NCBI GenBank assembly: GCA_042569985.1
Contig: JBHPHB010000001.1
Coordinates: 1,600-65,599 of the forward strand
DNA length: 64,000 bases
Reading direction: 5' to 3'
Source of the DNA: Spirochaetota bacterium
GTDB lineage: Bacteria; Spirochaetota; UBA4802; UBA5550
Shown here: in pieces, positions 3,804-50,836 of the stretch
Position numbering within the stretch: the stretch's first letter is position 1
Layout: every line of letters starts with the position of its first letter
Translations under genes and position numbers: made by a program
The notes under the pieces: generated by a model
Databases searched by the model: none
The model's input: the letters and a program-made list of their open reading frames with translations, nothing else
Told to the model about the DNA's origin: nothing

Positions 3804-4874
3804 ATGGAAGAGAAAAACAACCTTTCAAAAAAAATTCAGAAAATTAATAATTTAAACGAATATGAAAATTTATTAATTATAACGGAAAAAATAATCAGGC
3901 AGACTTTGAGCAATGAAATAAATTTGCTCAATTTTAAAAGTATACTTAATAAATTTGTTGATAAAATTTTTAAGGATGTGAAGGGCAATGAAGAGCTCTT
4001 TGTTACCCTAATATCATATATCGAGGGTAATAATAAATTTTTTGCACATTCCCTTAATACCGCCATATTTACTACAATATTTTGTATTTCCCTTGATATT
4101 GACGAAGATGACAGGAATACATTGATATCAACGGCACTTCTCCATGATATTGGAAAGCTGAAATATCATGATAAAATTCAGAAAAAGTATATATTGGACA
4201 ATGAAAGTATTAAAGATGTGGAGAAGAGTCATCCTGCCTGGGGTAAGAGACTCATACTATATCATCTGAGACTATCAAAAGAGATGGGTGAGTTAATTGC
4301 TAACCACCATGAAAATTTAATGGGTACGGGATTCCCTAATGGCCTGAAAGGGAGTGATCTGAGCCTCAATGATAATATCCTTATAACTTCAAATCTTCTG
4401 GAAAGAATATTGCAGAATATAAACTATGCAGGCATTGACCAGTTTGAAAAGACAATCGGATTTATGATGTCAAAGTATAAAAATCTTTTCAAGCCCGTCA
4501 TATCCAAAGTCATCTTAAGTCTATTCCAAATTGAAAACGAGAATAGAAAATACAAAAGATTTTCCATACAAAAAAATGGATACCTGGAAAGTCAAATCTC
4601 GAAGATACAATATCCCTGTGAACTTATTGACCTTTCGGCAGGGGGTGCTAAGATTTCATTGGAAAGAAAACTTCCCTCAGAGCTGATTTATAAAATAAAT
4701 ACGAAGCTTGCCAAAACTTTGAGCATCAGGAATAAAAGCTGCCGGATAATTCGGGAAAATGAAAGTGTAAAGGACTACGAATACGGTTTAGAGTTTTATA
4801 ATCCCGATGAAACAATTATTAAAAGTATTGAGCCAATCCTTGATGATAAAGCAACGAACCAGAAAATGAATTAG
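3804..4874 (+). CDS. HD-GYP-like phosphohydrolase domain fused to a C-terminal PilZ domain
   Basis: HD motif ALLHDIGK. HD-GYP-like stretch ANHHENLMGTGFPNGL (variant of HHExxDGxGYP, with D to M and Y to F). C-terminal PilZ-like ELIDLSAGGAKISL (DxSxxG). Confidence 0.6.
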   Translation: MEEKNNLSKKIQKINNLNEYENLLIITEKIIRQTLSNEINLLNFKSILNKFVDKIFKDVKGNEELFVTLISYIEGNNKFFAHSLNTAIFTTIFCISLDIDEDDRNTLISTALLHDIGKLKYHDKIQKKYILDNESIKDVEKSHPAWGKRLILYHLRLSKEMGELIANHHENLMGTGFPNGLKGSDLSLNDNILITSNLLERILQNINYAGIDQFEKTIGFMMSKYKNLFKPVISKVILSLFQIENENRKYKRFSIQKNGYLESQISKIQYPCELIDLSAGGAKISLERKLPSELIYKINTKLAKTLSIRNKSCRIIRENESVKDYEYGLEFYNPDETIIKSIEPILDDKATNQKMN

Positions 4875-5173: not shown

Positions 5174-5893
5174 TTATTTTGCAAATATTCCATTCCACCA
5201 GTTGCCCCTTCGCAATACTTTTCCTTTTTTATCATAGAGAATACCTTTGCCATTTCTTTTCCCGTTTTTCCATTGGCCTATAAAGGTGGAGCCATCGGAA
5301 AAATTGAAAATACCCTCTCCCGATCTTTTTCCATTTTTCCATTGGCCTATATATTTTGTTCCCCTCGGCCATGTATAAGTCCCCTTGCCGTTGAATTTAT
5401 CATCTTTCCATTGTCCCTTATATTTTGATCCGTCTGCAAAAGTACAGTTGCCCTTTCCATTCCTTTTGCCCTTTCTCCAGTCCCCCATATACAGTGTCCC
5501 TCCGGGAAAGGAAAAAGTGCCTTTGCCATGCCTTTTGTTGTATTTAAATTGGCCAGTATATTTTGAACCGTCCGGGAATATATATGTACCGCTACCGTGC
5601 ATTTTATCATTTTTCCATTGTCCCGTGTATTTTGTTCCGGTTGGCCCGGTGGCAACTCCACTGCCATGCCTTTTTCCCTTTTTAAACTGCCCCTTGTAAA
5701 TGAATCCACTGGGAAGCATTAGGGTTCCACGGCCGTGCCTTTTACCCTTTTTAAACTGGCCCACATATTTACTTCCGTTATTTTTAATTTCGGTGCCATT
5801 GCCATTTTTACAATTTCCCCTGGTGCATTTTGCATGGGCATCTGAAAAAATGGAAAGAGAAGTAATTATAAGTAAAAGGTACAGATATTTCAT
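5174..5893 (-). CDS. MORN-repeat protein with signal peptide
   Basis: Reiterated YxGQ(F/W)KxGKRHGxGT units (e.g. YVGQFKKGKRHGRGT, YKGQFKKGKRHGSGV, YTGQWKNDKMHGSGT). The DNA repeat explains the in-repeat shadow ORFs on both strands. Confidence 0.8.
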   Translation of the reverse strand: MKYLYLLLIITSLSIFSDAHAKCTRGNCKNGNGTEIKNNGSKYVGQFKKGKRHGRGTLMLPSGFIYKGQFKKGKRHGSGVATGPTGTKYTGQWKNDKMHGSGTYIFPDGSKYTGQFKYNKRHGKGTFSFPGGTLYMGDWRKGKRNGKGNCTFADGSKYKGQWKDDKFNGKGTYTWPRGTKYIGQWKNGKRSGEGIFNFSDGSTFIGQWKNGKRNGKGILYDKKGKVLRRGNWWNGIFAK

Positions 5894-9199: not shown

Positions 9200-9448
9200 A
9201 TGAAATTTTATACGGACAGAAGGGCATTTAATCGAAGAATCGCCGATAGAAGAATCTCTGATGACAGGGATTATCATGGATATGACAGAAGGCTCAGGAT
9301 TGGTGATAGGCGAAAACTGGAGAGCAGAAGGTTATTTAACAGGGGATTTTCATATAGGGGTGTAAATAAAATTCACATTTCCCTGGGTTGCAATAAAGTG
9401 ACCGTAATGGCATTAGGGGACATGGCAGATAAGTTTTATTACAAGTAA
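9200..9448 (+). CDS. Hypothetical small arginine-rich protein (DRR/RR repeats)
   Basis: ORF only; DRR/DRRL reiterations. No clear RBS. May be non-coding. Confidence 0.25.
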   Translation: MKFYTDRRAFNRRIADRRISDDRDYHGYDRRLRIGDRRKLESRRLFNRGFSYRGVNKIHISLGCNKVTVMALGDMADKFYYK

Positions 9449-10320: not shown

Positions 10321-10566
10321 ATGGCTACTCAATCATCAAAACAATTAACGAACAATTTAAAAAGAAAGCAGGCCAAGGTTAAAAAGTTGGATGCTGAAAT
10401 TAAGAAGGAGAAGGGCATCATTGCAAAACTTCAGACTTCAATTACAGCTGCTAAAAAGCGTGAGCAATTAGCTAAGGCAAAAAAGGCTAAGAAAAAGCCA
10501 GCAAAAAAAGCTAAAAAGAAAGTTAAAAAGAAAGCTAAATCTAAAGCGAAAAAGAGAAAAAGATAA
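10321..10566 (+). CDS. Histone H1-like lysine/alanine-rich nucleoid-associated protein
   Basis: C-terminal KKAKKKPAKKAKKKVKKKAKSKAKKRKR tail typical of bacterial histone H1-like (Hc1-type) proteins. AT-rich promoter region upstream. Confidence 0.6.
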   Translation: MATQSSKQLTNNLKRKQAKVKKLDAEIKKEKGIIAKLQTSITAAKKREQLAKAKKAKKKPAKKAKKKVKKKAKSKAKKRKR

Positions 10567-10606: not shown

Positions 10607-10634
10607 GGGCTGTCTTTATGTCAGCCCTTTTTTA
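10607..10634 (+). terminator. Rho-independent terminator after histone-like gene
   Basis: gggctg-tctttatgt-cagccc hairpin followed by ttttttatt. Confidence 0.6.
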
Positions 10635-10722: not shown

Positions 10723-12201
10723 ATGATAGATACATCAAAATTAGCCTCGACATTTACAAAAGACAGGGAAATATCAATTTCATTTGCATACCCCAGTGAT
10801 GAGGTATTCCTTTCGGTAAATTCCTTAATTGCAAAAATATTATCACAAGAAGATAAAATTTACCTTTTAGATTCTGTTTGCTCAATAATAAGAGAGACCA
10901 TACTAAACGCTGTTAAAGCTAATTTTAAAAGGGTGTTTTTTAAGAGCAGCGGCCTCGATATTCATACTCCCAAAGATTACGTTAAGGGAATGAGGGAATT
11001 CAAGAAATCAGTTATTATTGGCCAGGACAACTTCAGGGGTGAAATCACAGACAGTGAATATATAGTTGATATGAGGATAACCAAATCCCCTGATGGTATA
11101 ACCATTGCAATAGTAAATAACTTCAAAGTATTACCTGTAGAACTTGAGAGAATTAAATTCAGGATAATGACTGCAAAAAAAGCCCATAATTTTTCAGAAG
11201 CCTATGGTTCCGTGTCAGATAAAACTGAAGGTGCCGGCCTTGGTATTATCCTGTCAGTTTTTCTTTTAAAGAATGCCGGCATAGATTCTAATAGCTATAT
11301 AGTTACTGGCGACAATGAGTCTTTTAGTACGTCATTTCAAATACCGGCAAATATAAAGAAGATTGAAGCTACTTCATCCATTAAGGAAAAAATAATTAAT
11401 GATGTTAATGCTTTCCCCACGTTTCCCAAAAAAATAATGAAAATGCAATCATTGTGTAATGAACCCGAGGTTGAAATTGATGAAATAACATCGGAAATAA
11501 TACTTGATCCATCCCTTACTGCGGATGTTTTGAAACTGGCAAATTCAGCCGGTTTCATAACTGCAAAGAGAATTGAAAATATTAAAGATGCAATTATAAA
11601 AATTGGATTGAAAAACTTAAAATCAATACTTACCGCCACAACTGCCAGAAAAATACTGGACGACAGGTATAGTAAATTCGAGAAAATATGGGATCACTGC
11701 AATAAGGCAGCATTTTATGCCAGGGACATTTCATTAGAAATGGGTATGCCTTCTATAGCGGACAATGTATTTATATCCGGTCTGCTCCATGACATTGGGA
11801 AAATAGTTTTATTGTCTGCTGACATGAAACTTGTTGACGAGATTTCAGAAATTGCTTCGAGCAGACGGATTAGTGCAACATCAATAATTGAAGAGATATC
11901 AATTGGAATTAGCCATGTAACAATTGGAAAGCTCATTGCAGAGAAATGGAATTTCCCCGATTACCTTGTTGAAGCAATCAACGGGCACCACGCTCCGTTA
12001 AACGCACTGACCAGGCATAGAGATGTTGTTGATATAGTATACCTGGCGAATCTGCTTTGCGGGATAGAGGATGAAAAGTATAATTTCCATTTTATTGAAA
12101 CAGAAATTCTAGAAAAATTAAAAATCACTAAAAAAAATGATTTTAACGAGTTTAGAAAAAACCTGAAAAATAAATATGTTAAAAACTTATCATCGAAATA
12201 G
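10723..12201 (+). CDS. Two-domain signalling protein: N-terminal GHKL/anti-sigma-kinase-like ATPase-like region plus C-terminal HDOD domain
   Basis: N-box-like ETILNAVKAN and G2-box-like EGAGLGIILSV in the first 200 aa. C-terminal HDOD-type stretch SGLLHDIGKIVLL ... GISHVTIGKLIAEKWNFP. Confidence 0.55.
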   Translation: MIDTSKLASTFTKDREISISFAYPSDEVFLSVNSLIAKILSQEDKIYLLDSVCSIIRETILNAVKANFKRVFFKSSGLDIHTPKDYVKGMREFKKSVIIGQDNFRGEITDSEYIVDMRITKSPDGITIAIVNNFKVLPVELERIKFRIMTAKKAHNFSEAYGSVSDKTEGAGLGIILSVFLLKNAGIDSNSYIVTGDNESFSTSFQIPANIKKIEATSSIKEKIINDVNAFPTFPKKIMKMQSLCNEPEVEIDEITSEIILDPSLTADVLKLANSAGFITAKRIENIKDAIIKIGLKNLKSILTATTARKILDDRYSKFEKIWDHCNKAAFYARDISLEMGMPSIADNVFISGLLHDIGKIVLLSADMKLVDEISEIASSRRISATSIIEEISIGISHVTIGKLIAEKWNFPDYLVEAINGHHAPLNALTRHRDVVDIVYLANLLCGIEDEKYNFHFIETEILEKLKITKKNDFNEFRKNLKNKYVKNLSSK

Positions 12202-12212
12202 GAAATGCCGGT

Positions 12213-13916
12213 ATGGGCAAGTATACAGTTAAGGATACTCCATCCGGTGGGGCAACGCTTGTTTATAATGATTCCATAAGGCTTCATTCTGCCTATGATC
12301 CCGGAAAGGAAGCCCAGAGGGCGGTCTCTGCTTTTAAAGCCGGAAGGGCATCAATAATTCTTGTATCCGGGATGGGGCTGGCTTATCATGTTCAATCTTT
12401 GAAAAAAAAATACCCCCATGTAAATATTATTGTAATGGAACATGATGTTGAGGTTGTAGATATTGCAATGAAAATCTGTCCGGACCATTTAACAGATGTT
12501 GCAGTGGTTAACTCATCCTATGACCTTCCGAAAATATTTGAAGAACTTGATTTATCTGATTTTAAAGGAATATCCCTTTATACCCACAGGTCATCTTATC
12601 AAATTTATAAAGATTTTTATGATGGTATTATTAAGGATATATCACAATACATCTCTTCAAAGGTAAGTGACCTCCTCACAAGATTTGAGTTCGAAGAAAG
12701 ATGGGTTGAGAATATCTTCTCAAATATACCTTTGGTTTTTAAATCTTCCACTGTGATAAATTTATTCGGTAAATTTAAAGGCTACCCCGGTATAATTGTA
12801 TCCGCCGGCCCTTCATTGAGAAAAAATGTTGAGCTTTTGCACAAGATAAAGGACAAGGCACTCATAGTATGTGTTGATACCGCCATTAAAGTCTTAACCA
12901 GGAGGAATATTTACCCCCACATAGTAATGACCCTTGATGCCCAGGCATACAGCGTAAAGCATTTTCTCGGCCTTAGTAATTACTACCCCGTCCTTCTCGC
13001 GGATGTGGTGAGTAACCCCGGAGTGGCCAGACAATATAAAGGCAAAAAGGTTATCAGTACAACGGCAAAGTATTACACGGACAGCAGGGGTGAATCTAAA
13101 AGAGAAGCGACTCCCGTAATGGACTGGATTGAGAGATATATACCTCCAATTGGCGACATCCAATCGGGAGGTTCCGTAGCTACAAGCGTATTTGATCTCC
13201 TCCTGAATTTGGGATGTGACCCCATTGTCCTAATGGGCCAGGACCTTGCATATACTGGAAGGGAGATCCATTGCAGCGGCACCTACCATAATGATGACTG
13301 GCTGACGAAATATTCACGTGTACTTAATCTTGATACGATAAATCAAAGGGTAATTAGAAAAAGACAGATTAAATATGTTGATGCATATGGAAAATCGGGA
13401 AAGGTTATCTCCGATTTTGTTTTTGATTTATATAAGGGTTGGTTTGAGGATTCAGCCGGTAAAGTTAAAGCTGCAATTGTCAACTCCACAGAGGGGGGAG
13501 CTTTTATCAGGAATACGGTGGAGAAAAGCCTGGAGCAATTAATTAAGGAATCCCCTGACAGGAAACAAACACCCGGGGAGATTATTGACAGGTTTTTATC
13601 CGGTCATAATAAAACAGGGCACAATGAGTTTAATGAAGCACTAAAAAAAGCAGTGGCGGGAATAAATAAAATTTCCCAGATGTCACAGGATGCAATTGAA
13701 AATAATTTAGATACTGATTTGGCTGCATTAATTGATGATTATGATTTATCACTTTTATATAATCCCTACCTTAGAAAAACAAACACCTATCTTTCGCGGC
13801 ATGAAATTGAACCGGAAAAAGCTGTACTTATGATTAATAAAAATATTTTATCAGCTTCAAAAAAACTGGCCACCATTGTAAGCAACTGTGTTAAGAATCT
13901 CAATGCAACGCAGTGA
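12213..13916 (+). CDS. DUF115 (MptE-like / motility-accessory-factor Maf family) protein
   Basis: Central GIIVSAGPSL...CVDTAIKVL...LMGQDLAYT block characteristic of the DUF115/Maf family. Assignment from memory of the family consensus. Confidence 0.5.
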   Translation: MGKYTVKDTPSGGATLVYNDSIRLHSAYDPGKEAQRAVSAFKAGRASIILVSGMGLAYHVQSLKKKYPHVNIIVMEHDVEVVDIAMKICPDHLTDVAVVNSSYDLPKIFEELDLSDFKGISLYTHRSSYQIYKDFYDGIIKDISQYISSKVSDLLTRFEFEERWVENIFSNIPLVFKSSTVINLFGKFKGYPGIIVSAGPSLRKNVELLHKIKDKALIVCVDTAIKVLTRRNIYPHIVMTLDAQAYSVKHFLGLSNYYPVLLADVVSNPGVARQYKGKKVISTTAKYYTDSRGESKREATPVMDWIERYIPPIGDIQSGGSVATSVFDLLLNLGCDPIVLMGQDLAYTGREIHCSGTYHNDDWLTKYSRVLNLDTINQRVIRKRQIKYVDAYGKSGKVISDFVFDLYKGWFEDSAGKVKAAIVNSTEGGAFIRNTVEKSLEQLIKESPDRKQTPGEIIDRFLSGHNKTGHNEFNEALKKAVAGINKISQMSQDAIENNLDTDLAALIDDYDLSLLYNPYLRKTNTYLSRHEIEPEKAVLMINKNILSASKKLATIVSNCVKNLNATQ

Positions 13917-14136: not shown

Positions 14137-15012
14137 ATGAAAAAAAAATTATTATTATTATTACTAGGCATCTTATCAATCGCTGTTTCAATTCCTCTAA
14201 ATGCATACATATCCTGGAGCCCAAAAAAATTCAATGCTGCGGGAATTAATATTGACTGGCAAAAAGGTAAAATTTCTTCCATTGGAATTTCCGAGATACC
14301 AACAGATGAGAAGGGGAGCCCGGTTGATTATGAAAATCGCAATGTCATATCCATAAACAAGGGCAGGCTGGATGCATATAAGAGGGCAAGGGAGAGTGCC
14401 GTTCAAAAAATAATAAATTCCATGCTTTCGTTAAGAATTGACTATGAAAACAGTTTATTAAACTTAATAAAAAGTCACAGGTTTACGCGTAACAGGTTGT
14501 CGCAATTAATTTCCCGCCGGATGAAGGTAAGCGAATATCCCGTTGATTTTTTTCAATCAGGATGTATTGCTGAATTGAAGATGGGTGATTTAATACACGT
14601 TTTGCCATATCATTATCCGTCTTCTGATTTTCCAAAAATACACAACATCGAAATTGAGACCAGGTATACGGGATTAATTGTTGACACAAGGGGCCTTGGG
14701 ATTATGCCCATGGTTTTGCCATCTATATATAATGAAGACGGCCTTGAGATTTACAGCCGTTATAATGTAGATATAAAATGGGCCAGTAAATACGGGATAG
14801 TTTCCTATGTACATACAGAAAGTATGGCATTGAAAAACAGGAAAGCCGGGAATCGTCCTTTTTACACGGTTGCTGTTAAGGAGAGCAGGGGCTGTCCGGT
14901 TTTGTCAACGAAGGATATAAGGAAAATATACAGCAGCAGGGATACTTTGAAAAGGCTAAAAAAATGCAATGTAATCTTTATTATAGACAGAGAAAAAAAA
15001 ATAAATAAATAA
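14137..15012 (+). CDS. Hypothetical secreted protein
   Basis: N-terminal signal peptide MKKKLLLLLLGILSIAVSIPLNA. No recognisable catalytic motif. First gene of a 3-gene overlapping operon. Confidence 0.5.
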   Translation: MKKKLLLLLLGILSIAVSIPLNAYISWSPKKFNAAGINIDWQKGKISSIGISEIPTDEKGSPVDYENRNVISINKGRLDAYKRARESAVQKIINSMLSLRIDYENSLLNLIKSHRFTRNRLSQLISRRMKVSEYPVDFFQSGCIAELKMGDLIHVLPYHYPSSDFPKIHNIEIETRYTGLIVDTRGLGIMPMVLPSIYNEDGLEIYSRYNVDIKWASKYGIVSYVHTESMALKNRKAGNRPFYTVAVKESRGCPVLSTKDIRKIYSSRDTLKRLKKCNVIFIIDREKKINK

Positions 15013-15653
15013 TGAATCCAATATCAAGAATATTATCCAAATTTTTTTCGACGCTAAACAGGCTTATAAATGACCTGGACTTGAGGTCGGTGAGAATCAT
15101 TCAGCAGACATTTATCTTTATTATCATAGTCCTCTGTATAGTGGGTATATTTGTGGGTTACAACATGGGGAGTAAGTCTGCCAAGGTTAAAAAAGGGCCG
15201 CCCCTTGCGCCTAATACCAGGGATATTTTTGAAATAATTATCAACCGTGAAAAGGAGAGCGGCAAATTTGCACCGATGCTTGAATCAAAATTGATAACAG
15301 AGTCAAGGTATTCAAAAGAAAAAAAGATAATGTTTAAATCACAGGAAAAGTTAACTCCCGATTTGGATGAAAGTATAGTTGATACGCATAAAAACAAAAA
15401 GTCAAAGACTTCAACTCAAATGAAAATGCAAAACGAAATATTTGAGGGTGAGTATATGCGGAGAATGAAGAGAAAAACAGATGTGAAGCCCTTGAAGAAA
15501 AAAGAGGATATGCCTGATTCTAAAAAAGAGAATAGGGTTATAAATGATAAGGGGAGTATTTTACCTCTAAAGAAAGGTACAGAAAAAGAAAGAAAAATTA
15601 AATTAAAGGACCCCGTGATAATAAAAAAGAATACAGGGATAATTGATAAATGA
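15012..15653 (+). CDS. Hypothetical membrane-anchored lysine-rich protein
   Basis: Single TM (IIQQTFIFIIIVLCIVGIFVGY) then K/E-rich tail. Start overlaps previous stop (taaATGa). Confidence 0.45.
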   Translation: MNPISRILSKFFSTLNRLINDLDLRSVRIIQQTFIFIIIVLCIVGIFVGYNMGSKSAKVKKGPPLAPNTRDIFEIIINREKESGKFAPMLESKLITESRYSKEKKIMFKSQEKLTPDLDESIVDTHKNKKSKTSTQMKMQNEIFEGEYMRRMKRKTDVKPLKKKEDMPDSKKENRVINDKGSILPLKKGTEKERKIKLKDPVIIKKNTGIIDK

Positions 15654-16510
15654 GAAATATATTTTTTGTGTTTTTAATGGTGACTTTTACGCTTCCTCTG
15701 TTTGCACAGAATTTTTCAAAAACAGAAAAGGTTATAAATACAATATTGGATGATTCAGTTAAAAGTGGACCTCAAAGTTTTCGCAAGGATAAAAACAGGA
15801 AAACCAGGGAACAAATATCAACTGATAAAAAAAAGAAAAAGAACCAAAAAGATACATTGAAAACTTCCTCGGAAGATGAGACCCTTTTAAAAACGGGAAT
15901 ACATTTTTTTAACGGCGGACTCAATGAACATGCATTGAAAGTTTTTTATAACCTCATTGCCAAGTTTCCCCAAAGCCCCAATTTGGATAATTCAAGGATA
16001 TGGATAGGTAAAATAAAAATTAAGCAGTATAAATATATAGATGCCATAAATGAATTATCAAAGATAAAAAAAGATTCAGGTGAATACCCCGGGGCAATAT
16101 TTTATATTGGCCAATGCTATTATCTCAATGGCAACAAAGTTAAATCTTTAGGGTTTTTTCAAAAGGTCTTTTCTGAATTTCCCAACCATGACCTTGCGGA
16201 CAATGCATTACTCAGGACTGCCAGGATCTATCTTCAACAGAGAAGCGGCGACCAGGCTGTTGAGTCCGCTGTTAAGCTGATAAAGTACTACAAGGATAGA
16301 GAGACAATTGATGATGCCTATTACCTCCTTGGAAAGATATTCGAAAAGGATCCCACACTTAAGGATATTGAAAGGGCCAGGAGAATTTATAAGCAGTTTT
16401 TAAAGAAGGAAAGGGATGGAATTGCTCATTTTAAAAATTCCCCTTTAAAGCATAAGATCAAAAGAGACCTCAGGTTTATCGAGAAGACCTATTTCATGAT
16501 GGAAAACTGA
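15650..16510 (+). CDS. TPR-repeat periplasmic protein (YbgF-like architecture)
   Basis: Signal peptide, then TPR-like repeats (ALKVFYNLIAKFPQSPN..., AIFYIGQCYYLNGN..., ALLRTARIYLQQ...). 4-nt overlap with upstream gene. Confidence 0.55.
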   Translation: MRNIFFVFLMVTFTLPLFAQNFSKTEKVINTILDDSVKSGPQSFRKDKNRKTREQISTDKKKKKNQKDTLKTSSEDETLLKTGIHFFNGGLNEHALKVFYNLIAKFPQSPNLDNSRIWIGKIKIKQYKYIDAINELSKIKKDSGEYPGAIFYIGQCYYLNGNKVKSLGFFQKVFSEFPNHDLADNALLRTARIYLQQRSGDQAVESAVKLIKYYKDRETIDDAYYLLGKIFEKDPTLKDIERARRIYKQFLKKERDGIAHFKNSPLKHKIKRDLRFIEKTYFMMEN

Positions 16511-35652: not shown

Positions 35653-36030
35653 TTATACTTCATCCTTTATAGATTCAGTGATGGTTTTCTCAAATTCAAC
35701 TGCAATATAGGAATCTCCCTTTGATATGAATTTAACAAATTTTTGCGCTATTTTAGAGGGGTTGTTTTCTAAAAGCCCCGTTCTTACAATTGATCCCAGC
35801 ACATTGTATTTATTTTTTTTTGTTGAGAATTTTACCCTTACCGGCATGCCGATGGCAACTCTCTTTTTAGAGATAATAAATACACCCCCACGGCTTATAT
35901 CAAGAATGAACCCCTTGCATTTTTCCGGAGTGTCTTTATCGGGATCAATAATTTCAGGATTTCCTTCATAATAGTCGAACTTTGTTTTAATATCACAGCT
36001 GTATCTGGAGTATTTACGTTTTTCCGTCAT
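35653..36030 (-). CDS. PilZ domain c-di-GMP-binding protein
   Basis: RxxxR motif RKYSR near the N-terminus. DxSxGG motif LDISRGGVFI. Confidence 0.7.
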   Translation of the reverse strand: MTEKRKYSRYSCDIKTKFDYYEGNPEIIDPDKDTPEKCKGFILDISRGGVFIISKKRVAIGMPVRVKFSTKKNKYNVLGSIVRTGLLENNPSKIAQKFVKFISKGDSYIAVEFEKTITESIKDEV

Positions 36031-36216: not shown

Positions 36217-37851
36217 ATGAAAAAAAAAGATACCAGAATAATTATAGTGACCGGTGGTGTTTGTTCCTCCCTGGGGAAGGGCATTTCAATTGCTTCGCTG
36301 GGACTCCTCCTTGAAGGCCACGGATATAAAATATCAATTATTAAAATGGATCCATATATTAATATTGATCCAGGGACCATGAGTCCCTACCAGCATGGTG
36401 AAGTATATGTTACTGAGGACGGGGCTGAGACTGACCTTGACCTTGGGTATTACGAAAGATTTACAAATTCAAACCTTACCAGCAGAAATTCAGTATCTAC
36501 TGGTCAAATATATTATTCTGTTATTCTCAGGGAAAGAAAGGGCGATTATCTCGGCAGGACTGTGCAGGTGATACCCCACATAACTAATGAGATAAAAAAA
36601 AGAATTTATGATGTGGCCAATGATGAGGACCTGGATTTTGTTCTTGTAGAGATTGGCGGAACAGTGGGCGATATTGAATCGGTTCCTTTCCTTGAGGCCG
36701 TGAGGCAGATACGTCATGAGCTTGGCAGGGAAAGGGTTATGAATGTACACCTTACGTTAATACCGGTTATAACAGTTGCCGGTGAACAAAAAACCAAACC
36801 CACACAGCACTCTGTAAAGGAATTAATGGAGATTGGTATAATCCCCGATGTTCTTTTATGTAGAACGAGCCTTCCCCTGGCTGATGAATTAAAGAGTAAG
36901 ATCGCACTTTTTTGTAATGTTTCCGAAAAGAACGTCATTTCCGCGGAGGACATTAGCGGTTCAATATATGAAATTCCATATATGTTTCATAAAAATAATT
37001 ATGATAAAATTGTTCTTGAGCACTTCGGGCTCAAAGTTTCAAAATTAAAGCTTCCTGCCTGGGATAAGTTTCTTAAGGCATATCATAATCCCCTTAGAAA
37101 AGTAACAATTGCTGTTGTGGGGAAATATATCTCTCTTCAGGACTCCTACAGGTCCATTTATGAGGCCCTTTTTCACGGGGCCGTGGCTAACAGGGCGGAA
37201 CTTGAGATTGTTAGAATCGATTCTGAGGATATTGAAGGGATGACCCTGGCTAAGTTAAAAAGAAAATTTTCAAATGTTGACGGTGTCCTGGTGCCGGGGG
37301 GATTTGGAGTGCGGGGTATTGAAGGGAAAATTATGGCAATATCCTGTTTAAGAAAAAGCAAAATACCCTTTTTTGGAATCTGTCTCGGTTTGCATTGTGC
37401 TGTCATTGAGTTTGGCCGGAATGTATGCGGCCTTGAAAATGCAAATTCCACTGAATTTGAACCTGAAAATGAAAATCCTGTAATATCCCTCCTTGAAGAA
37501 CAGGAAATAATTGTAGATAAGGGGGGTACAATGAGGCTCGGTGCATTCTTGTGCAAATTTCAGGAGGGTAGTAAAATAAAAAAGATATATAATGTGGCTT
37601 CCGTAAAGGAGAGGCACAGGCATAGATTTGAGTTTACAATGAGGTATAAAGAATTATATGAGAAGAAGGGTATGAACTTTGGGGGGATTTATCCCACAAG
37701 TAATCTAGTTGAGACAATAGAGATTAAGGACCATCCCTGGTTTATAGCAACCCAGTATCATCCGGAATTCAAATCGAAACCTCATAAACCGCATCCCCTG
37801 TTCAGGGATTTTATTAGGGCATCAATTGAATATAGAGAGAAAAAGAAATAA
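36217..37851 (+). CDS. pyrG: CTP synthase
   Basis: N-terminus IIVTGGVCSSLGKG. C-terminal glutamine amidotransferase GICLGLHCAVIE. 544 aa. Confidence 0.95.
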   Translation: MKKKDTRIIIVTGGVCSSLGKGISIASLGLLLEGHGYKISIIKMDPYINIDPGTMSPYQHGEVYVTEDGAETDLDLGYYERFTNSNLTSRNSVSTGQIYYSVILRERKGDYLGRTVQVIPHITNEIKKRIYDVANDEDLDFVLVEIGGTVGDIESVPFLEAVRQIRHELGRERVMNVHLTLIPVITVAGEQKTKPTQHSVKELMEIGIIPDVLLCRTSLPLADELKSKIALFCNVSEKNVISAEDISGSIYEIPYMFHKNNYDKIVLEHFGLKVSKLKLPAWDKFLKAYHNPLRKVTIAVVGKYISLQDSYRSIYEALFHGAVANRAELEIVRIDSEDIEGMTLAKLKRKFSNVDGVLVPGGFGVRGIEGKIMAISCLRKSKIPFFGICLGLHCAVIEFGRNVCGLENANSTEFEPENENPVISLLEEQEIIVDKGGTMRLGAFLCKFQEGSKIKKIYNVASVKERHRHRFEFTMRYKELYEKKGMNFGGIYPTSNLVETIEIKDHPWFIATQYHPEFKSKPHKPHPLFRDFIRASIEYREKKK

Positions 37852-39137
37852 TGGAAGAAAATAATAGTAAAGACTATAATCTTGCCTACTTAGAAAGGCA
37901 AATGCATAATCTTACAAAGCTTGTGGGAATTAATAATATCATTAATTCCACGCTGGATATTAAAAAACTTCTTTCACTGATCATGGAAATAATTAAAGAT
38001 ATTATGGATGCCGAAGCAAGTACCCTGCTTTTATATGATGAGGAATCTGAAGCACTGGTTTTCAAGGTTGCATTGGGAGAAGCCGGGGAGGAACTCCAGG
38101 AGAAATACAGGGTTTCCCTGGGCCAGGGAATTGCAGGCTGGGTTGCACAAAACAGAAAACCGCTCAATGTCCTTGACGCATATACCGATGAGAGGTTTGA
38201 TCCAAATTTTGATAAAAAGACGGGCTTTAAAACCAAATCAATTCTCTGCACGCCACTGCTGTTTAAAGGCAAACTCCTTGGAGTAATACAGGCTATCAAT
38301 TCCATAACAAAACCGCATTTTGATGATGAAGATGTAAATCTTTTTAAAATTTTCAGTAATCAGGCGGCCCTTGCTGTCCAGAATGCCATGTTTTTCCAGA
38401 ATGCCCTGGAAGAAGAGAGGATTAAAATTGAATTGCAGTCGGCAAAATCAATTCATGAATCACTTGTCCCCATTTATGTAAATAAAATAAATAAGATCAA
38501 TATTGCGGCAAAATCTGTTTCGGCAAGAGAAGTGGGAGGTGAGTTTCATGGGGTGTACAAGATCAGCGATGACCATGTTGGTGTAGCTTTAGTGGATATA
38601 CATCAGAAAGGGCTTCCCGGGGGGCTTCAGGCATCAATAATGAGCGGGGCGTTGAGATCATTGGTATGGACAAAAGGTAAAAATCCTTCACACCTTATAA
38701 AAATACTAAACAGGATTATCTCCGATGATCTAAGTTCCATCAGCAATGTGTCTATCTTTTACGGTTTGGTCGACTGCAGTGAAAATACATTGAATTACAT
38801 TAAAGCCGGTGTTGTTTATCCCATTCTTGTGAGAAATAAAGTTGCCAGGTATTTCAGGTTTGACAGCAAATCTTTTGGCACCGAAAGTTCTGGAATAAAA
38901 AAGGTTAAGGTGAAATTACAAGCGGGGGATATGTTTGTAATAATTACTGACGGAATGCTTAATATTAAAAATAGAAATGGTGTGAAGCTTGGTTTAAAAG
39001 ATGTCATGGCCTGCCTTGAAGGTGATTTCAATAAGCCCGAAGAGGTAATAGAAGGGGTGATTGATTATACCGATAATTTTTATAATGGCCTGGAGAAGAG
39101 GGAAGATATCTCAATTGTTGTTTTTAAGGTAGACTGA
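37851..39137 (+). CDS. GAF domain plus PP2C-type (SpoIIE/RsbU family) serine phosphatase
   Basis: GAF-like N-terminal half. PP2C-like C-terminal half with GGEFHGVY...VALVDIHQKGLPGG...FVIITDGML. Start overlaps pyrG stop (taATGg). Confidence 0.7.
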   Translation: MEENNSKDYNLAYLERQMHNLTKLVGINNIINSTLDIKKLLSLIMEIIKDIMDAEASTLLLYDEESEALVFKVALGEAGEELQEKYRVSLGQGIAGWVAQNRKPLNVLDAYTDERFDPNFDKKTGFKTKSILCTPLLFKGKLLGVIQAINSITKPHFDDEDVNLFKIFSNQAALAVQNAMFFQNALEEERIKIELQSAKSIHESLVPIYVNKINKINIAAKSVSAREVGGEFHGVYKISDDHVGVALVDIHQKGLPGGLQASIMSGALRSLVWTKGKNPSHLIKILNRIISDDLSSISNVSIFYGLVDCSENTLNYIKAGVVYPILVRNKVARYFRFDSKSFGTESSGIKKVKVKLQAGDMFVIITDGMLNIKNRNGVKLGLKDVMACLEGDFNKPEEVIEGVIDYTDNFYNGLEKREDISIVVFKVD

Positions 39138-46332: not shown

Positions 46333-46719
46333 TTATTCAATTAAAAAGCTGAAGAAGTTTAATACTTCCGTTTCGGAGTGAAGAATCTTGATAAAGTTCT
46401 GCAGTTTGACAATTTTAAAAATATCTTTAATTTGAGACGGAACATCGAGAAAGGCAATTTCACCTTTATTGGCCCTTATTATTTTTGCTGTTTTTATAAA
46501 TGCGCCAATACCGGAACTGTCAATGTATTCCATTTCTTTCATGTCCACAATGATTTTTAATGCGCCTCCATTGATGAGAGTGTTTATGAAATGTATAATG
46601 TAATTTATATTACTCCCATCAACACCCTTTTTAAGGCATATTCTAAAAATAATATGATTGAAATTCAATGAGTCATCGGCAAGGGGATTGATTTTGATTA
46701 TATCACAGTGGACATCCAT
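46333..46719 (-). CDS. STAS-domain anti-sigma-factor antagonist (SpoIIAA/RsbV-like), paralog 4 of 4
   Basis: DMKEMEYIDSSGIGAFIKTAK. Conserved phosphorylatable Ser context DSSG. Confidence 0.75.
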   Translation of the reverse strand: MDVHCDIIKINPLADDSLNFNHIIFRICLKKGVDGSNINYIIHFINTLINGGALKIIVDMKEMEYIDSSGIGAFIKTAKIIRANKGEIAFLDVPSQIKDIFKIVKLQNFIKILHSETEVLNFFSFLIE

Positions 46720-46762
46720 TTATTAATCCTGTTGAAAATTATAAAATATATTTGGAACATTA

Positions 46763-47137
46763 TCATACATTAAGTTTAAGAAATTTTATCGCCTCTTCCT
46801 CTGATTCAAAGATTTGGATAAACCTTTGAAGGTTTACTGGCCTGAATATATTAAGAATGTTTTCGGGAACCCTGATTAATCCGATATCTCCTTTTTTTGT
46901 CCTTAACAATTTTGCGGAATTTATCAGCATGCCTATGCCCTGGCTGTCGATAAAATCTAAATTATTCATATCTATGATTATTTTATTGAGCCCGCCGTCT
47001 ATTAATGTTTTCAGGATTTTCCAGAGGTTATTTGTTTCATCTCTATCAATAACATCGGCTGCTTTTACTTTTAAGATGACGGAGTCATGTTCGATCTTTT
47101 CCTCATTCCTTGATGTTTGCAATATCGTGAAGTTCAT
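46763..47137 (-). CDS. STAS-domain anti-sigma-factor antagonist, paralog 3 of 4
   Basis: DMNNLDFIDSQGIGMLINSAK. RVPENILNIFRPVNLQRF. Confidence 0.75.
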   Translation of the reverse strand: MNFTILQTSRNEEKIEHDSVILKVKAADVIDRDETNNLWKILKTLIDGGLNKIIIDMNNLDFIDSQGIGMLINSAKLLRTKKGDIGLIRVPENILNIFRPVNLQRFIQIFESEEEAIKFLKLNV

Positions 47138-47179
47138 ATTAATTTATTATAAAATGAGAATATATAATCTCCCTTGTAT

Positions 47180-47560
47180 TTAATAATTATATAAAAATTC
47201 CAATGCTTCATTTTCTTTATCAAATATTTTTATAAAATTTTGAAGGTTAATAATCTTAAGTACATGTTTTATTTCATGGGGTACATTCATTATAACCAGC
47301 GTGCCGGAATTATCATTTAACTGCTTTGCTGTGTTTATTAGAATCCCAATGCCGGAACTGCTAATGTATTCTAAGTTTTCCATGTCTACAAGTATTTTTT
47401 TTGCCCCACCGCTAATTAATATATCCATGAACAATGACAGGTTATGGGAATTATCAATATTAATTTCATCGTACAACAGGGCCTTGAATATTATTTTGCT
47501 ATAATCAAAAATATCACTTTTTACCGTGGCCTCACATATTGTGTCAAAAGCTATTTTCAT
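47180..47560 (-). CDS. STAS-domain anti-sigma-factor antagonist, paralog 2 of 4
   Basis: DMENLEYISSSGIGILINTAK. NVPHEIKHVLKIINLQNF. Confidence 0.75.
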   Translation of the reverse strand: MKIAFDTICEATVKSDIFDYSKIIFKALLYDEINIDNSHNLSLFMDILISGGAKKILVDMENLEYISSSGIGILINTAKQLNDNSGTLVIMNVPHEIKHVLKIINLQNFIKIFDKENEALEFLYNY

Positions 47561-47594
47561 TAAAACCTCGTAATATTAGTATAAGTTATAATGG

Positions 47595-47966
47595 CTAAAA
47601 GTATAACGGTATATCCTCTTCCGATTTCAAAATCTTAACCAATTTCTGGAGATTAACTGTTTTAAAAATATTTTCAATATCTTCGGGAAGGTTAATTATG
47701 GCTGTATTCCCGCCTTCCTGATTCAGGGATTTTGCCGTATTGAATAGTACTGCTATTCCCGAACTGTCAATATATTCAAGGTCCATCATATCATATACAA
47801 TATATTTTATACCCCCTTTTATGGTGGTTGATAAGAAAATCCAGAGGTCCTTTGATGTATCAAAATCTAATACGCCTTTCAATTCGATTTTCATTACTAT
47901 TGTATCAAAATCAATCTCGTGGGTTAACCTGGGAGAGAGTTTTATGATCTTGCATATACTTTCCAT
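47595..47966 (-). CDS. STAS-domain anti-sigma-factor antagonist, paralog 1 of 4
   Basis: DMMDLEYIDSSGIAVLFNTAK. NLPEDIENIFKTVNLQKL. Confidence 0.75.
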   Translation of the reverse strand: MESICKIIKLSPRLTHEIDFDTIVMKIELKGVLDFDTSKDLWIFLSTTIKGGIKYIVYDMMDLEYIDSSGIAVLFNTAKSLNQEGGNTAIINLPEDIENIFKTVNLQKLVKILKSEEDIPLYF

Positions 47967-48076
47967 TATAATCCCTTTTTGAAAATATTAAGTAACATCC
48001 TGTTGATATACCACTTATAGTAATAGTAATTTAAATTCAATATAGATTTATCATTGAGCCAAAAAAAATATCATTT

Positions 48077-50836
48077 TTAAAAATTAAAATCCACAACGAC
48101 CATTGTAATGTCATCCTCCAATCCTTTTTTATTGTTAATTCCAGACCATTCTTTCACTGTATCTATGGATTTTTCCGTAAATTTTTCACAACTTAGATCG
48201 TGACTATTTAGAATTAAATTTTTAAAATTTTTATTACCGAACATTTCCCCCTTTTCATCCTTCGTTTCAAGTATCCCGTCTGTATACATTACAAAACGGT
48301 CCCCTTCTTCCAGGTCAAATTCATTAGTAGGAAAATTCTCTTCAGCCATCCAGCCAAAGGGCATGCCGTTATTTTCATTAAAAATTATTTCATTGTTCTT
48401 TTTTTTGTATAGAAGTGACGGCCAGTGTCCCGCGTTTGCCTGGTATAATTTTTTTTCTTCCAGGTCTATATATGCATAACATGCGGTGATAAATTGCCCT
48501 GATGTATGATTGAACATTGTCGCATTAATTTTAGACATGAGAACATCGGGCTTATCAGCATCTTCAAGAAAAAATGTGAATGTAACTCTCAACATGGCAC
48601 AAATAATTGCCGCCGGTATGCCGTGCCCGGATACATCGGCAATGAGAATGCCAACCTTTTTGTCGTCAATAACCTGGATGTCATAATAATCACCGCCAAG
48701 TTCAAACATTGGCTCATACTGAACTGATATTGCAAAATTTTTCCCCTGGGGAATATCCTTTAGTATTATACTGTCCTGGATCTCATGGGCTATATGAAGG
48801 TCCCTTTTCAGTGATGATAATTCATCGTGAATCTTAACTGAGTCTTTTAGCGATATTAAGTTGTTAACCCTGGCGATTAGCTCCATTTTGCTAACAGGTT
48901 TTGTAACATAATCATTAGCTCCGGCATCAATACCCGCGGCAATATCAGCGGGTTTGTTTTTCGCTGTGAGCATCAGTATGGGTAATTCATACTGAGAATA
49001 GGTTTTCCTCAATGTTGAACAGAGTTCATAACCTGACATTCTCGGGAGCATTACATCAAGGATGAGCAGGTTGGGCAATGCGTTTTCTTCAAATATTTGT
49101 AAAACCTCTGAGCCAGTTGTTGCCGTTATCACCTCATATCCCTCCAATGTGAGGTGATTCAATATAACCTTTATGTTGATGGGTTCGTCATCCACAACAA
49201 CGATCCTTTTCCCATTGAAGTTTTTAGGAGTATTGGCAACTTCAAAAATGGTTGAAGTATCCCTGTCTATTTTGTCAAGGTAATCTGTATTTATTTCAAG
49301 TGTGTTTTTAATATTTAAAACCAGTTGTTTTTCCTTTGATTCATTCAGGGAAAATGAAAAGCAGCTGCCCCTGCCGGGTGATGATTCAACCCATATTTCC
49401 CCTCCATGGAGCTCTACCAGTTTTTTTGCAATTGTAAGGCCCAGTCCTGTGCCTCCAAACTTTCTGGTTGCTGACCCGTCTACCTGCTCAAAGAGGTTGA
49501 ATACGCTTTTGATCTTTTCGGGGTGTATTCCCATTCCTGTATCTTTAACATTTATTATGATTTTATCATTAACGTGATCCTTTTGGGATGATATTTCAAT
49601 GCTGCCAGTTTCGGTAAATTTAACGGCATTGCTTAAAAGGTTCAGCATTATCTGCTGCAGCCTTATCTCATCTCCAAGAATGAATACTGATTCCGGATTT
49701 ATTTTATTCTTGATTTCGATGTTTTTGTTTTTCAGCAGGGGACTTATGATGGACATGATGTATTGTGTTATTGAATACATATCCACGGTTGACATGTTTA
49801 ATTTTATGTCATAATGCTTTAACTTAGAAAAATCCAGTATATCATTAATCAGTCCCGTTAGCTGTTTGCCGCTTTTTTTGATAAGTGATAAATTAAGTAT
49901 TGTCTCCACGTTAAGGCTTCCCGAAACACCCTCCAGGAGAGATTCGGTGAGCCCTATCATGCCGTATAGGGGAGTCCTGAATTCATGTGAAATGGTGGCA
50001 AGAAATTCATCCTTGAGGTTGTCAATCCTTCTGAGTTCCCTGTTGTTGTCCTGGAGCGCGCCAATTTCAAGTTTTATTACTTCCGCCAGGTGGTTAAATG
50101 TTCTGGCAAGCTTACCAAGTTCATCCTTTGAGCTGACGGGAATCCTGTAATTCAAGTCCCCGCTTCCGATTTCTTCCGCCCCGATTATTAACCTGTCAAT
50201 GGGTTTTGATATGAAACGGCTGAATACAAGGCCAATTATGATTGCAATAAGAATTGCTGAGAAAATTGATATGTATATAATATTCCTCAGTTTATTAATT
50301 GGTGAAAGTAGAATTGACTTGGAAAATATCAGCCTGCCCATGCAGTATGTTTTCCGCTGCAGGATTGCCCCCCGGGATATTATTTCATAGTAGGTATCAT
50401 CTATTTCGGGGACTTTAATTTCTCTAACCATATCGTTTTTAAAATTGCTGTCATATTTATGAGAAAGAATTAACTTCAGGGTGTCCGGGTTACTCTCAAT
50501 TATTTTATTTGTATAACTGGAAATTATTATACCATTGTACTTCTCATTAGGTGATATAAGGGTTGTATCAGCATAAAGCAGGCCCGTTTCTTTAAGAGGT
50601 TTAAGGATCGATAACATCTCTTTTGAGTCAATGCGTGTTGCCGTAATGCTTCCTCCGTTCATTATAAGAAGGTTTAAGGTGGACATTGCAAGAATTTTAC
50701 TGTTGATAATCCCCTGGTTTGTAAGAAGATCAATTTTTTCACTCTCCTGAATTTTGAGGATAAAAAACGAAATGGGCAGAGAGGCAATTAGTATTATTGA
50801 TATTAGCAGTAATATTAGTTTATATTTTATCTTCAT
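48077..50836 (-). CDS. Hybrid sensor histidine kinase - receiver - PP2C (SpoIIE/RsbU-type) phosphatase
   Basis: TM and periplasmic region, second TM, HAMP-like linker. H-box ATISHEFRTPL. HATPase GGTGLGLTIAKKLVELHGG. Receiver KRIVVVDDEP...LDVMLP...LMLTAK. PP2C GGDYYDI...ADVSGHGIPAA...MYTDGILE. Confidence 0.8.
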   Translation of the reverse strand: MKIKYKLILLLISIILIASLPISFFILKIQESEKIDLLTNQGIINSKILAMSTLNLLIMNGGSITATRIDSKEMLSILKPLKETGLLYADTTLISPNEKYNGIIISSYTNKIIESNPDTLKLILSHKYDSNFKNDMVREIKVPEIDDTYYEIISRGAILQRKTYCMGRLIFSKSILLSPINKLRNIIYISIFSAILIAIIIGLVFSRFISKPIDRLIIGAEEIGSGDLNYRIPVSSKDELGKLARTFNHLAEVIKLEIGALQDNNRELRRIDNLKDEFLATISHEFRTPLYGMIGLTESLLEGVSGSLNVETILNLSLIKKSGKQLTGLINDILDFSKLKHYDIKLNMSTVDMYSITQYIMSIISPLLKNKNIEIKNKINPESVFILGDEIRLQQIMLNLLSNAVKFTETGSIEISSQKDHVNDKIIINVKDTGMGIHPEKIKSVFNLFEQVDGSATRKFGGTGLGLTIAKKLVELHGGEIWVESSPGRGSCFSFSLNESKEKQLVLNIKNTLEINTDYLDKIDRDTSTIFEVANTPKNFNGKRIVVVDDEPINIKVILNHLTLEGYEVITATTGSEVLQIFEENALPNLLILDVMLPRMSGYELCSTLRKTYSQYELPILMLTAKNKPADIAAGIDAGANDYVTKPVSKMELIARVNNLISLKDSVKIHDELSSLKRDLHIAHEIQDSIILKDIPQGKNFAISVQYEPMFELGGDYYDIQVIDDKKVGILIADVSGHGIPAAIICAMLRVTFTFFLEDADKPDVLMSKINATMFNHTSGQFITACYAYIDLEEKKLYQANAGHWPSLLYKKKNNEIIFNENNGMPFGWMAEENFPTNEFDLEEGDRFVMYTDGILETKDEKGEMFGNKNFKNLILNSHDLSCEKFTEKSIDTVKEWSGINNKKGLEDDITMVVVDFNF

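Follow-up and report, generated by a model that had tools for sequence, protein, structure and literature searches.

A predicted divergent GHKL (Bergerat-fold) domain fused to an HDOD domain in a conserved Spirochaetota protein family

A stretch of 64,000 nucleotides from a Spirochaetota bacterium (contig JBHPHB010000001.1; the whole stretch is referred to as the window in the following) harbors, at positions 10723-12201 of the + strand, a gene for which a preliminary description had proposed the function of the missing kinase in a partner-switching network, and the locus thus raises the question of whether this gene encodes such a kinase or a signalling protein of another kind. The gene begins with an ATG codon and encodes 492 amino acids (aa), and its homologues align to this open reading frame (ORF) from residue 1 onward. 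The product is predicted to comprise a divergent GHKL (Bergerat-fold) domain (aa 1-212; 10723-11358), an inter-domain linker (aa 213-231; 11359-11415), for which the predicted local distance difference test score (pLDDT) was between 57 and 71 and in which no residue is conserved at 90% or more, and an HDOD domain (aa 232-425; 11416-11997), followed by more helices on to the C-terminus. Taken as a whole, the data are best explained by a cytoplasmic two-domain signalling protein that belongs, as an orthologue, to a conserved family of the Spirochaetota (Leptospirales type), an explanation which we consider probable and hold with moderate confidence.

Structure prediction provided the first of three independent lines of evidence for the fold of the N-terminal domain. 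The model obtained with AlphaFold2 (AF2) from an alignment of 5 sequences reached a pLDDT of 84.9 and a predicted template-modelling score (pTM) of 0.84, and the one obtained from 36 sequences reached values of 92.1 and 0.88, respectively, with identical secondary structure. In the models, a helix (residues 4-12), a strand (17-21) and a further helix (26-42) precede the helix bearing the N-box (46-75), followed by two helices (83-99 and 101-109), two strands (115-122 and 125-132), a helix (138-153), the lid helix (157-164), the G2 helix (173-184) and two final strands (193-196 and 201-208). When the models were compared with the PDB using Foldseek, every match with a probability of at least 0.98 represented a partner-switching kinase or an anti-sigma factor, with template-modelling (TM) scores normalised to the target between 0.57 and 0.72. 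The best match of the improved 36-sequence model was SiaB (6kko; E=2.4e-3, probability 1.0, target TM 0.57), and SpoIIAB (1tid, 1til, 1l0o, and 1th8; E=1.5e-3 to 1e-2, target TM 0.61-0.68), RsbW (6m36 and 6m37; target TM 0.67-0.72), LvrC of Leptospira (9qih; probability 0.98-1.0) and UsfX (8ih8) were also among the high-probability matches. CheA P4, GanS, and PDK ranked next, at much lower probability.

The second line was obtained by profile-profile alignment. A 151-sequence alignment of the N-terminal domain was compared by means of hhalign with a profile of the catalytic and ATP-binding (CA) domain of histidine kinases (HK), composed of 10 sequences taken from the window and related loci, resulting in a P-value of 1.3e-4 (probability 54%) over 104 columns, with the N-box, the G1 box, the F-box region and the G2 box all in register. 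In this alignment, NLisNAVKft of the HK profile corresponds to rEli-NA-KAN of the family at the N-box, V-DTG-Gi-e----iF--F to V-NN---i---E--RI--Ri at the G1 box, and GtGLGL to GAGLGI at the G2 box. The third line refers to the Pfam model PF02518 (HATPase_c), which was matched at E<=1 by 17 of 93 full-length family members (best E=4.8e-5) and was the sole recurrent non-HD Pfam family among them, the next families recurring in at most three members. Furthermore, a local hidden Markov model (HMM) of the CA domain was collinear on residues ~50-75 and ~117-207 in 127 out of 154 members, as compared to 39 out of 154 reversed-sequence controls, the scores of which were weaker. Together, model and alignments place the N-terminal domain in the GHKL/Bergerat fold, within the structural class of the anti-sigma and partner-switching kinases, and the fusion of a GHKL-like region to an HDOD domain, as originally suggested, is therefore upheld.

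The closer likeness to RsbW and SpoIIAB serine kinases that had been suggested for this region was confirmed for the fold class, as represented by the Foldseek results, but not for the corresponding sequence models. The alignment with SpoIIAB was collinear over the full domain and showed the same register, with a weak P-value of 0.03 achieved for a shallow SpoIIAB profile (effective number of sequences, Neff, of 1.9), and PF13581 (HATPase_c_2) did not match the query even at E<=10 and was not found among the 25 Pfam families with the most frequent matches in the 93 members. Profiles built from 5 and 36 N-domain sequences retrieved nothing relevant from Pfam, NCBIfam or the PDB sequences, and weak matches of the domain to HemAT and leucyl-aminopeptidase were dismissed as noise. 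No match to a HisKA or dimerisation and histidine phosphotransfer (DHp) domain was detected in the query, and no His, Ser or Thr within residues 1-231 is conserved at 90% or more in the family alignment, indicating that the protein features neither a DHp-type acceptor nor an obvious acceptor in cis.

GHKL domains are characterized by an N-box (E/N-x3-N), a G1 box (D-x-G-x-G), the Asp of which contacts the adenine N6, and a G2 box (G-x-G-L-G) constituting the phosphate loop. The two strings on which the preliminary description had been based, ETILNAVKAN (residues 58-67) and GAGLGIILSV (residues 170-179), were borne out together with their ORF, since they are near-invariant across 154 family representatives and hence do not represent chance motifs. 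The N-box-like motif (R57-E58-x3-N62-A-x-K65-A-N67-x-K69-R70; 10891-10932, + strand) is in register with the N-box of SpoIIAB and with that of the histidine kinases, and E58 (152 of the 154 representatives), N62 (152), K65 (138), A66 (150) and N67 (146) are conserved therein; by homology, E58 may serve as the general base, N62 as the Mg2+ binder and K65 as a phosphate contact. The N-box helix bears, two turns past N62, two extra invariant basic residues, K69 (152/154) and R70 (148/154), for which SpoIIAB, RsbW and the HK CA domain offer no equivalent. They are followed by a family-specific insertion (aa 71-112; 10933-11058), which is represented by the helices 83-99 and 101-109 in the models, appears as a gap in both hhalign alignments, is likewise without equivalent in SpoIIAB, RsbW and the HK CA domain, and features the conserved residues F73, L78, D79, I80, Y86, G89, F93, and K94. 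The G2-box-like motif (D166-x-x-E169-G-A-G172-L-G174-I; 11218-11247) is located at the start of helix 173-184 and is similarly conserved (D166 in 139, E169 in 151, G170 in 139, G172 in 151 and G174 in 151 representatives), as is E140 (151/154).

The G1 box, which had been described as not obvious, turned out to be a variant. At the position of its Asp, at the end of strand 125-132, the hhalign register and the conservation pattern place N132-N133 (11116-11121), with N132 being present in 150 and N133 in 133 of the 154 representatives, and no glycines occur there. Conservation over the whole protein peaks within the N-terminal domain (154 sequences), and E58, N62, N132, E169, G172, and G174 are all kept in 165 out of 169 full-length members; these six residues are retained even in the 22 members that lost three or more of the HDOD ligands described below. 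The near-invariant Glu, Asn, Lys and G2 loop in combination with the Asn-Asn pair argue for a phosphate-bearing ligand still being bound, with its base being recognised in a different way, and the pattern argues against a decayed pseudo-enzyme.

The assignment of the C-terminal half is more straightforward. As previously noted, it represents an HDOD domain containing an HDIGK string (H356-D357): PF08668 matched residues 232-425 over profile positions 2-196 of 196, with 175.5 bits (cutoff 22.9; E=1.2e-51), and was found in 93 of 93 full-length family members. An HD match (PF01966, E=1.9e-7) is nested within the HDOD domain, and the NCBIfam model TIGR00277 (HDIG) was matched with 28.8 bits, just over its cutoff of 27.6. 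HDOD proteins account for all of the closest solved structures (3hc1, E=1e-22; 3m1t, E=7e-21; 3i7a, 3mem, 1vqr, and 9qzk). In the Geobacter protein 3HC1, two iron ions are held by five His residues and one Asp (PMC12075610), and H325, H356, D357, H398, H422, and H423 of the query (11695-11991) align with all six of these ligands, representing putative di-metal ligands. The domain therefore probably binds metal, as deduced from the alignment to 3hc1. Each of the six positions is kept in 69-87 of the 93 members, and the five-His/one-Asp metal site is an optional feature within the HDOD family.

Regarding its distribution, the family was initially underestimated: a word-indexed search yielded four relatives of the N-terminal domain (38-44% identity) originating from metagenomes and one Spirochaetota metagenome-assembled genome, and the impression of a tiny family was overturned by an exhaustive HMM search. 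In a search space of 1.84 billion cluster representatives (clustered at 50% identity), this search detected 818 clusters at E<=1e-3, of which 633 remained at a threshold of 1e-10 and 225 at 1e-30; the family comprises at least these 818 clusters, most of which are 480-505 aa long and fit the same two-domain architecture. When one genome per GTDB species was scanned with the 5-sequence alignment as query, 146 relatives were revealed; the locus counts and synteny reported here refer to the best 80 of them, all of which belong to Spirochaetota and are labelled Leptospirales, Leptospiraceae or Leptospira. Several of the related genomes harbor two family copies. Members are 21-48% identical to the query, and the highest identity to the protein of the window among the GTDB relatives was 45% for the N-terminal domain and 50% over the full length, indicating that the lineage of the window has no close relative among the species representatives; its syntenic genes are only ~35-63% identical to those of the nearest representatives, which points to a deep-branching, Leptospirales-like lineage. 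Family genes in the genome loci encode 350-550 aa (475-525 aa in 74 out of 81 cases), with lengths of 475-550 aa for the orthologues in the 80 Spirochaetota loci, and library proteins of ~200-250 aa resembling a stand-alone N-terminal domain are probably fragments. A tblastn search against plasmids produced HDOD-only matches and nothing else. The only source-given names encountered for family members were "hypothetical protein" and "HDOD domain-containing protein, partial", and no paper joining HDOD with HATPase or treating the Leptospira orthologue was found in the searchable literature.

Comparison with characterized systems specifies both the likeness and the peculiarity of the protein. SiaB of P. 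aeruginosa (6kko), the best structural match, is the Thr kinase of the SiaABCD module of cyclic di-GMP (c-di-GMP) signalling and was described as a small dimeric Bergerat-fold kinase feeding nucleotide second-messenger signalling (PMC7278518). However, SiaB is a stand-alone protein, the gene of which accompanies those of its substrate, SiaC, and of the phosphatase SiaA, whereas the query is fused to an HDOD domain, has no such genes nearby, lacks the G1 Asp and contains an insertion of ~40 aa. SpoIIAB, RsbW and UsfX (1tid, 1l0o, 6m36, and 8ih8) show the same order of strands and helices as the query; its E-x3-N-A aligns with the SpoIIAB N-box and its E-G-A-G-L-G with E-R-S-G-M-G, while the D-E-G of the SpoIIAB G1 box is represented by N-N, an N-terminal helix and the two-helix insertion are added, and a sigma-factor or STAS partner is missing from the neighbourhood. 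LvrC of Leptospira (9qih) is likewise a spirochaete protein in which a Bergerat domain of the partner-switching type is fused to another signalling domain. In LvrC, this domain is located C-terminally, after a receiver domain, and was crystallised with ADP and Mg2+ (PMC13269768); in the query, it is located N-terminally, fused to HDOD, and carries the Asn-Asn variant of the G1 box. The best relation at the level of sequence profiles is the HK CA domain (PF02518), with aligned N-A-x-K of the N-box and G-x-G-L-G of the G2 box, but the query lacks the DHp/HisKA domain, a conserved phospho-acceptor His and the G1 D-x-G-x-G, and its lid is short. Among the HDOD proteins compared, namely Geobacter 3HC1, SadB (9QZK, 3MEM) and Cj0248 (1VQR), the metal-ligand set of the query is that of 3HC1, and SadB combines an HDOD domain that lost most of its His ligands with a YbaK-like N-terminal domain. 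An HDOD protein with a GHKL-type N-terminal domain was not found described in the searchable literature.

The genomic neighbourhood shows that the gene heads a conserved operon with genes encoding a PseD/Maf-like protein and envelope proteins. The gene directly downstream (12213-13916, + strand) starts 11 bp past the stop codon and encodes an MptE-like/DUF115 protein of the PseD/Maf-like (flagellin-modification) type (PF01973, E=4e-43), the PseD likeness being represented by a match to NF050051 (E=1.7e-29) that stays well short of the cutoff set for this model. It is followed on the same strand by a signal-peptide protein of 291 aa (14137-15012) and a single-pass membrane protein of 213 aa with a Lys-rich tail (15012-15653), both deduced from their translations and lacking a family match, and by a YbgF/BamD-like TPR protein identified by means of Pfam and NCBIfam (15650-16510). 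The MptE-like gene was the immediate downstream neighbour in 43 out of 77 related loci, and the three genes after it hold their positions in 28-30 loci. In the related genomes, genes for a LolA-like protein, an unknown 197-aa protein, ComEC, the family member, the MptE-like/DUF115 protein, the 291-aa and 213-aa proteins and the TPR protein are co-directional, and the downstream order in the window is the same; beyond the TPR gene, opposite-strand genes follow, with CheX- and SurA-like genes in some loci, and a same-strand DtxR-family regulator and EF-G in others. All six HDOD ligands were kept in 44 of 44 orthologues sharing the gene order of the window (Maf-like neighbour), and the same 44 retain both the N-terminal and the HDOD site, indicating that strong purifying selection acts on the two sites among these orthologues.

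Upstream of the gene, a terminator-like hairpin (GGGCTG, a loop of 9 nt, CAGCCC, and then T6) was read from the sequence at 10607-10633 (+ strand), 3' of a Lys/Ala-rich ORF of 81 aa with histone-H1-like composition (10321-10566, + strand; no Pfam or NCBIfam match), and would set the gene apart from upstream transcription. A scan limited to loops of at most 8 nt found no terminator-like site on the + strand between 10100 and 16800, the loop of the hairpin at 10607-10633 being 9 nt long. Since ComEC lies directly upstream of the family gene in most of the related loci, the Lys-rich ORF and the rhomboid gene of the window look like lineage-specific insertions. No riboswitch, other Rfam family or tRNA was detected near the operon, and in the whole 64 kb, neither a tRNA gene nor an Rfam family reaching the gathering threshold was present. 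The operon partners lacking annotation were considered as possible STAS- or SiaC-like substrates, a candidacy that was rejected, as they are exported or membrane proteins, and ORF cluster 7 of the related loci consists of spurious antisense ORFs.

Other contexts were found for paralogues, each in about five loci: a cyclic nucleotide monophosphate (cNMP)-binding protein and a class III cyclase, a DHH/DHHA1 phosphoesterase, REC-PAS-HD-GYP regulators, and histidine kinases. In five related loci (L020, L034, L037, L047, and L052), the cNMP-binding protein is encoded just upstream, an ERG4/ERG24-like reductase just downstream, and a dCache-HAMP class III cyclase farther downstream, all within positions -1 to +4 around the family gene; L020, L037, and L052 each harbor a second family member three genes upstream, on the opposite strand, and in L047 it lies four genes upstream. 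Paralogues near DHH/DHHA1 phosphoesterase and HSP20 genes were found in L074, L078, L079, and L080, and paralogues near REC-PAS-HD-GYP regulators in L005 and L039.

Concerning the partner-switching genes themselves, the inventory given for the window, namely four STAS antagonists and two PP2C phosphatases without a canonical RsbW, proved to be correct for the ORFs scanned, among which neither a HATPase_c_2/RsbW-type protein nor a sigma factor was found. The four STAS paralogues are arranged in tandem (46333-47966, - strand), are 34-40% identical to the first, and all carry the I-D-S-S-G-I-G phospho-site motif or a close variant. Directly beside them, a single 919-aa HAMP-HisKA-HATPase_c-REC-SpoIIE(PP2C) protein is encoded (48077-50836, - strand), in which a two-component system and a partner-switching phosphatase are fused. 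The other PP2C protein (GAF-SpoIIE; 37851-39137, + strand) is encoded by a gene whose start codon overlaps the stop codon of the CTP synthase gene (36217-37851). Near the STAS array (46333-50836), no kinase or sigma-factor gene is present, and a search for RsbW-type kinases in the related loci with the SpoIIAB profile (Neff 1.9) returned only histidine kinases. As to genomic linkage, the conserved neighbourhood of the family gene contains no STAS, PP2C or sigma-factor gene; within 10 kb, STAS genes occur in only 4 and PP2C genes in 6 of the 80 related loci, and they are never adjacent.

Against this background, the N-terminal domain would bind a Mg-nucleotide and act as a nucleotide-dependent switch, whose output may be either phosphorylation of a hydroxyl group of a partner or nucleotide-gated partner binding, as in SiaB, RsbW, SpoIIAB, and LvrC. 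The metal-containing HDOD domain may gate it in cis by sensing metal, the redox state or a small ligand; alternatively, the HDOD domain may itself be the regulated module. The partner is probably not specifically the STAS array of the window. Several points weigh against this explanation. The N-terminal 226 aa of the query have no Pfam, NCBIfam or PDB-sequence match of their own, the Foldseek E-values are modest (2e-3 to 1e-1), and the TM scores normalised to the query amount to only 0.36-0.45, the latter because the query contains about 70 extra residues in insertions. Neither a conserved Ser/Thr/His acceptor nor a partner gene was identified, the presumed pocket geometry was drawn from alignments alone, and the HDOD domain is among the most widespread bacterial signalling domains without having an accepted function. 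Moreover, Asn takes the place of the G1 Asp in practically all family members, and canonical ATP binding is doubtful, since the same substitution in yeast Hsp82 (D79N) abolished specific ATP binding and ATPase activity, whereas the N-box Glu mutant E33A still bound ATP without hydrolysing it (PMC2132952). Likewise, SadB, which is also a two-domain HDOD protein and lost most of the His ligands, functions as a ligand-independent adaptor delivering AmrZ to the protease Lon (PMC12075610). Taken further, the loss of the G1 Asp and the Hsp82 and SadB precedents lead to a nucleotide-free pseudokinase, in which the N-terminal domain would serve as a protein-binding or dimerisation scaffold, either by anti-sigma-like sequestration or as a SadB-like adaptor, and its motifs would have been preserved for the sake of structure. 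This is considered highly improbable, as the near-total conservation of the Glu, the Mg-binding Asn, the phosphate-contacting Lys and the G2 loop among proteins of 21-48% identity is hard to reconcile with the absence of a phosphate ligand.

The proposal that the protein, as the Ser kinase of the partner-switching network of this genome, phosphorylates the four STAS paralogues and is opposed by the two PP2C phosphatases draws on a fold class that is exactly that of the STAS and SiaC kinases, on an E-x3-N general-base arrangement and an E-G-x-G-L-G loop resembling SpoIIAB, and on the preserved phospho-site motifs of all four STAS proteins, which imply that a STAS kinase must exist somewhere, in combination with the absence of an RsbW-type protein among the window ORFs scanned. 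However, a distance of 35 kb separates the gene from the STAS array, which is accompanied by an HK-REC-PP2C gene of its own, and the fixed neighbours of the family gene over at least 44 orthologous loci are ComEC, the PseD/Maf-like protein, two envelope proteins and the TPR protein, and not STAS or PP2C genes. Considering, in addition, that the G1 Asp is replaced and that a 64-kb window is a small part of the genome, in which the absence of RsbW weighs little, the role of the missing kinase appears very unlikely and finds no positive support in the data. A different reading of the Asn-Asn pair is that the GHKL-like domain is not a kinase but a ligand sensor for a non-adenine nucleotide, controlling a catalytic di-metal HDOD phosphohydrolase. 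The base pocket would then have been re-tooled by Asn-Asn and the additional Lys/Arg, with GTP, (p)ppGpp, c-di-GMP or a linear dinucleotide as ligand candidates. It is consistent with the invariant Asn-Asn at the base contact next to retained phosphate and Mg2+ residues and the added K69/R70, with the full HD-type metal site and the PF01966 and TIGR00277 matches above cutoff, with the signalling genes adjoining paralogues (cNMP-binding protein and class III cyclase, DHH/DHHA1 phosphoesterase, and REC-PAS-HD-GYP) and with the HD-PilZ fusion and the stand-alone PilZ protein encoded in the window. On the other hand, the paralogue contexts are small samples of about five loci each, and we know of no GHKL domain with non-adenine specificity. 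With respect to the hydrolase part, the prevailing view is that HDOD domains are non-catalytic (PMC6543031). The sensor reading is therefore judged unlikely, and the related view of a ligand-switched GHKL lineage, in which ATP would have been exchanged for a guanine-based or polyphosphate/dinucleotide second messenger as the ligand of the Bergerat domain, with coupling in cis to a di-iron HDOD domain, is equally tentative.

Partner-switching GHKL kinases are normally stand-alone proteins, and the large family described here, which was found only in Spirochaetota, Leptospira included, covalently links a GHKL-type to an HDOD domain. As the N-terminal domain is missed by Pfam and NCBIfam, these proteins are annotated only as "HDOD domain-containing protein". 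The fusion offers a tractable way into HDOD function, and the invariant change of the G1 Asp to Asn-Asn represents a handle on nucleotide recognition in the Bergerat fold; furthermore, the attractive assignment of the gene to the STAS/PP2C module of the window is corrected as unsupported. If the ligand-switch reading were true, it would provide the first defined input-output logic for HDOD and would mean that GHKL domains are able to serve as second-messenger receptors.

A few other features of the window were recorded. The two PilZ genes are of the c-di-GMP-effector type, the HD/HD_5 domain fused to PilZ being encoded at 3804-4874 (+ strand) and the stand-alone PilZ protein at 35653-36030 (- strand). 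A candidate gene at 9200-9448 (+ strand) represents an Arg-rich ORF of 82 aa with repeated DRR/NRR-type units (RRAFNRRIADRRISDDRDYHGYDRRLRIGDRRKLESRR), and the protein of 239 aa encoded at 5174-5893 (- strand) consists almost entirely of MORN repeats (eight repeats, E=1e-57).

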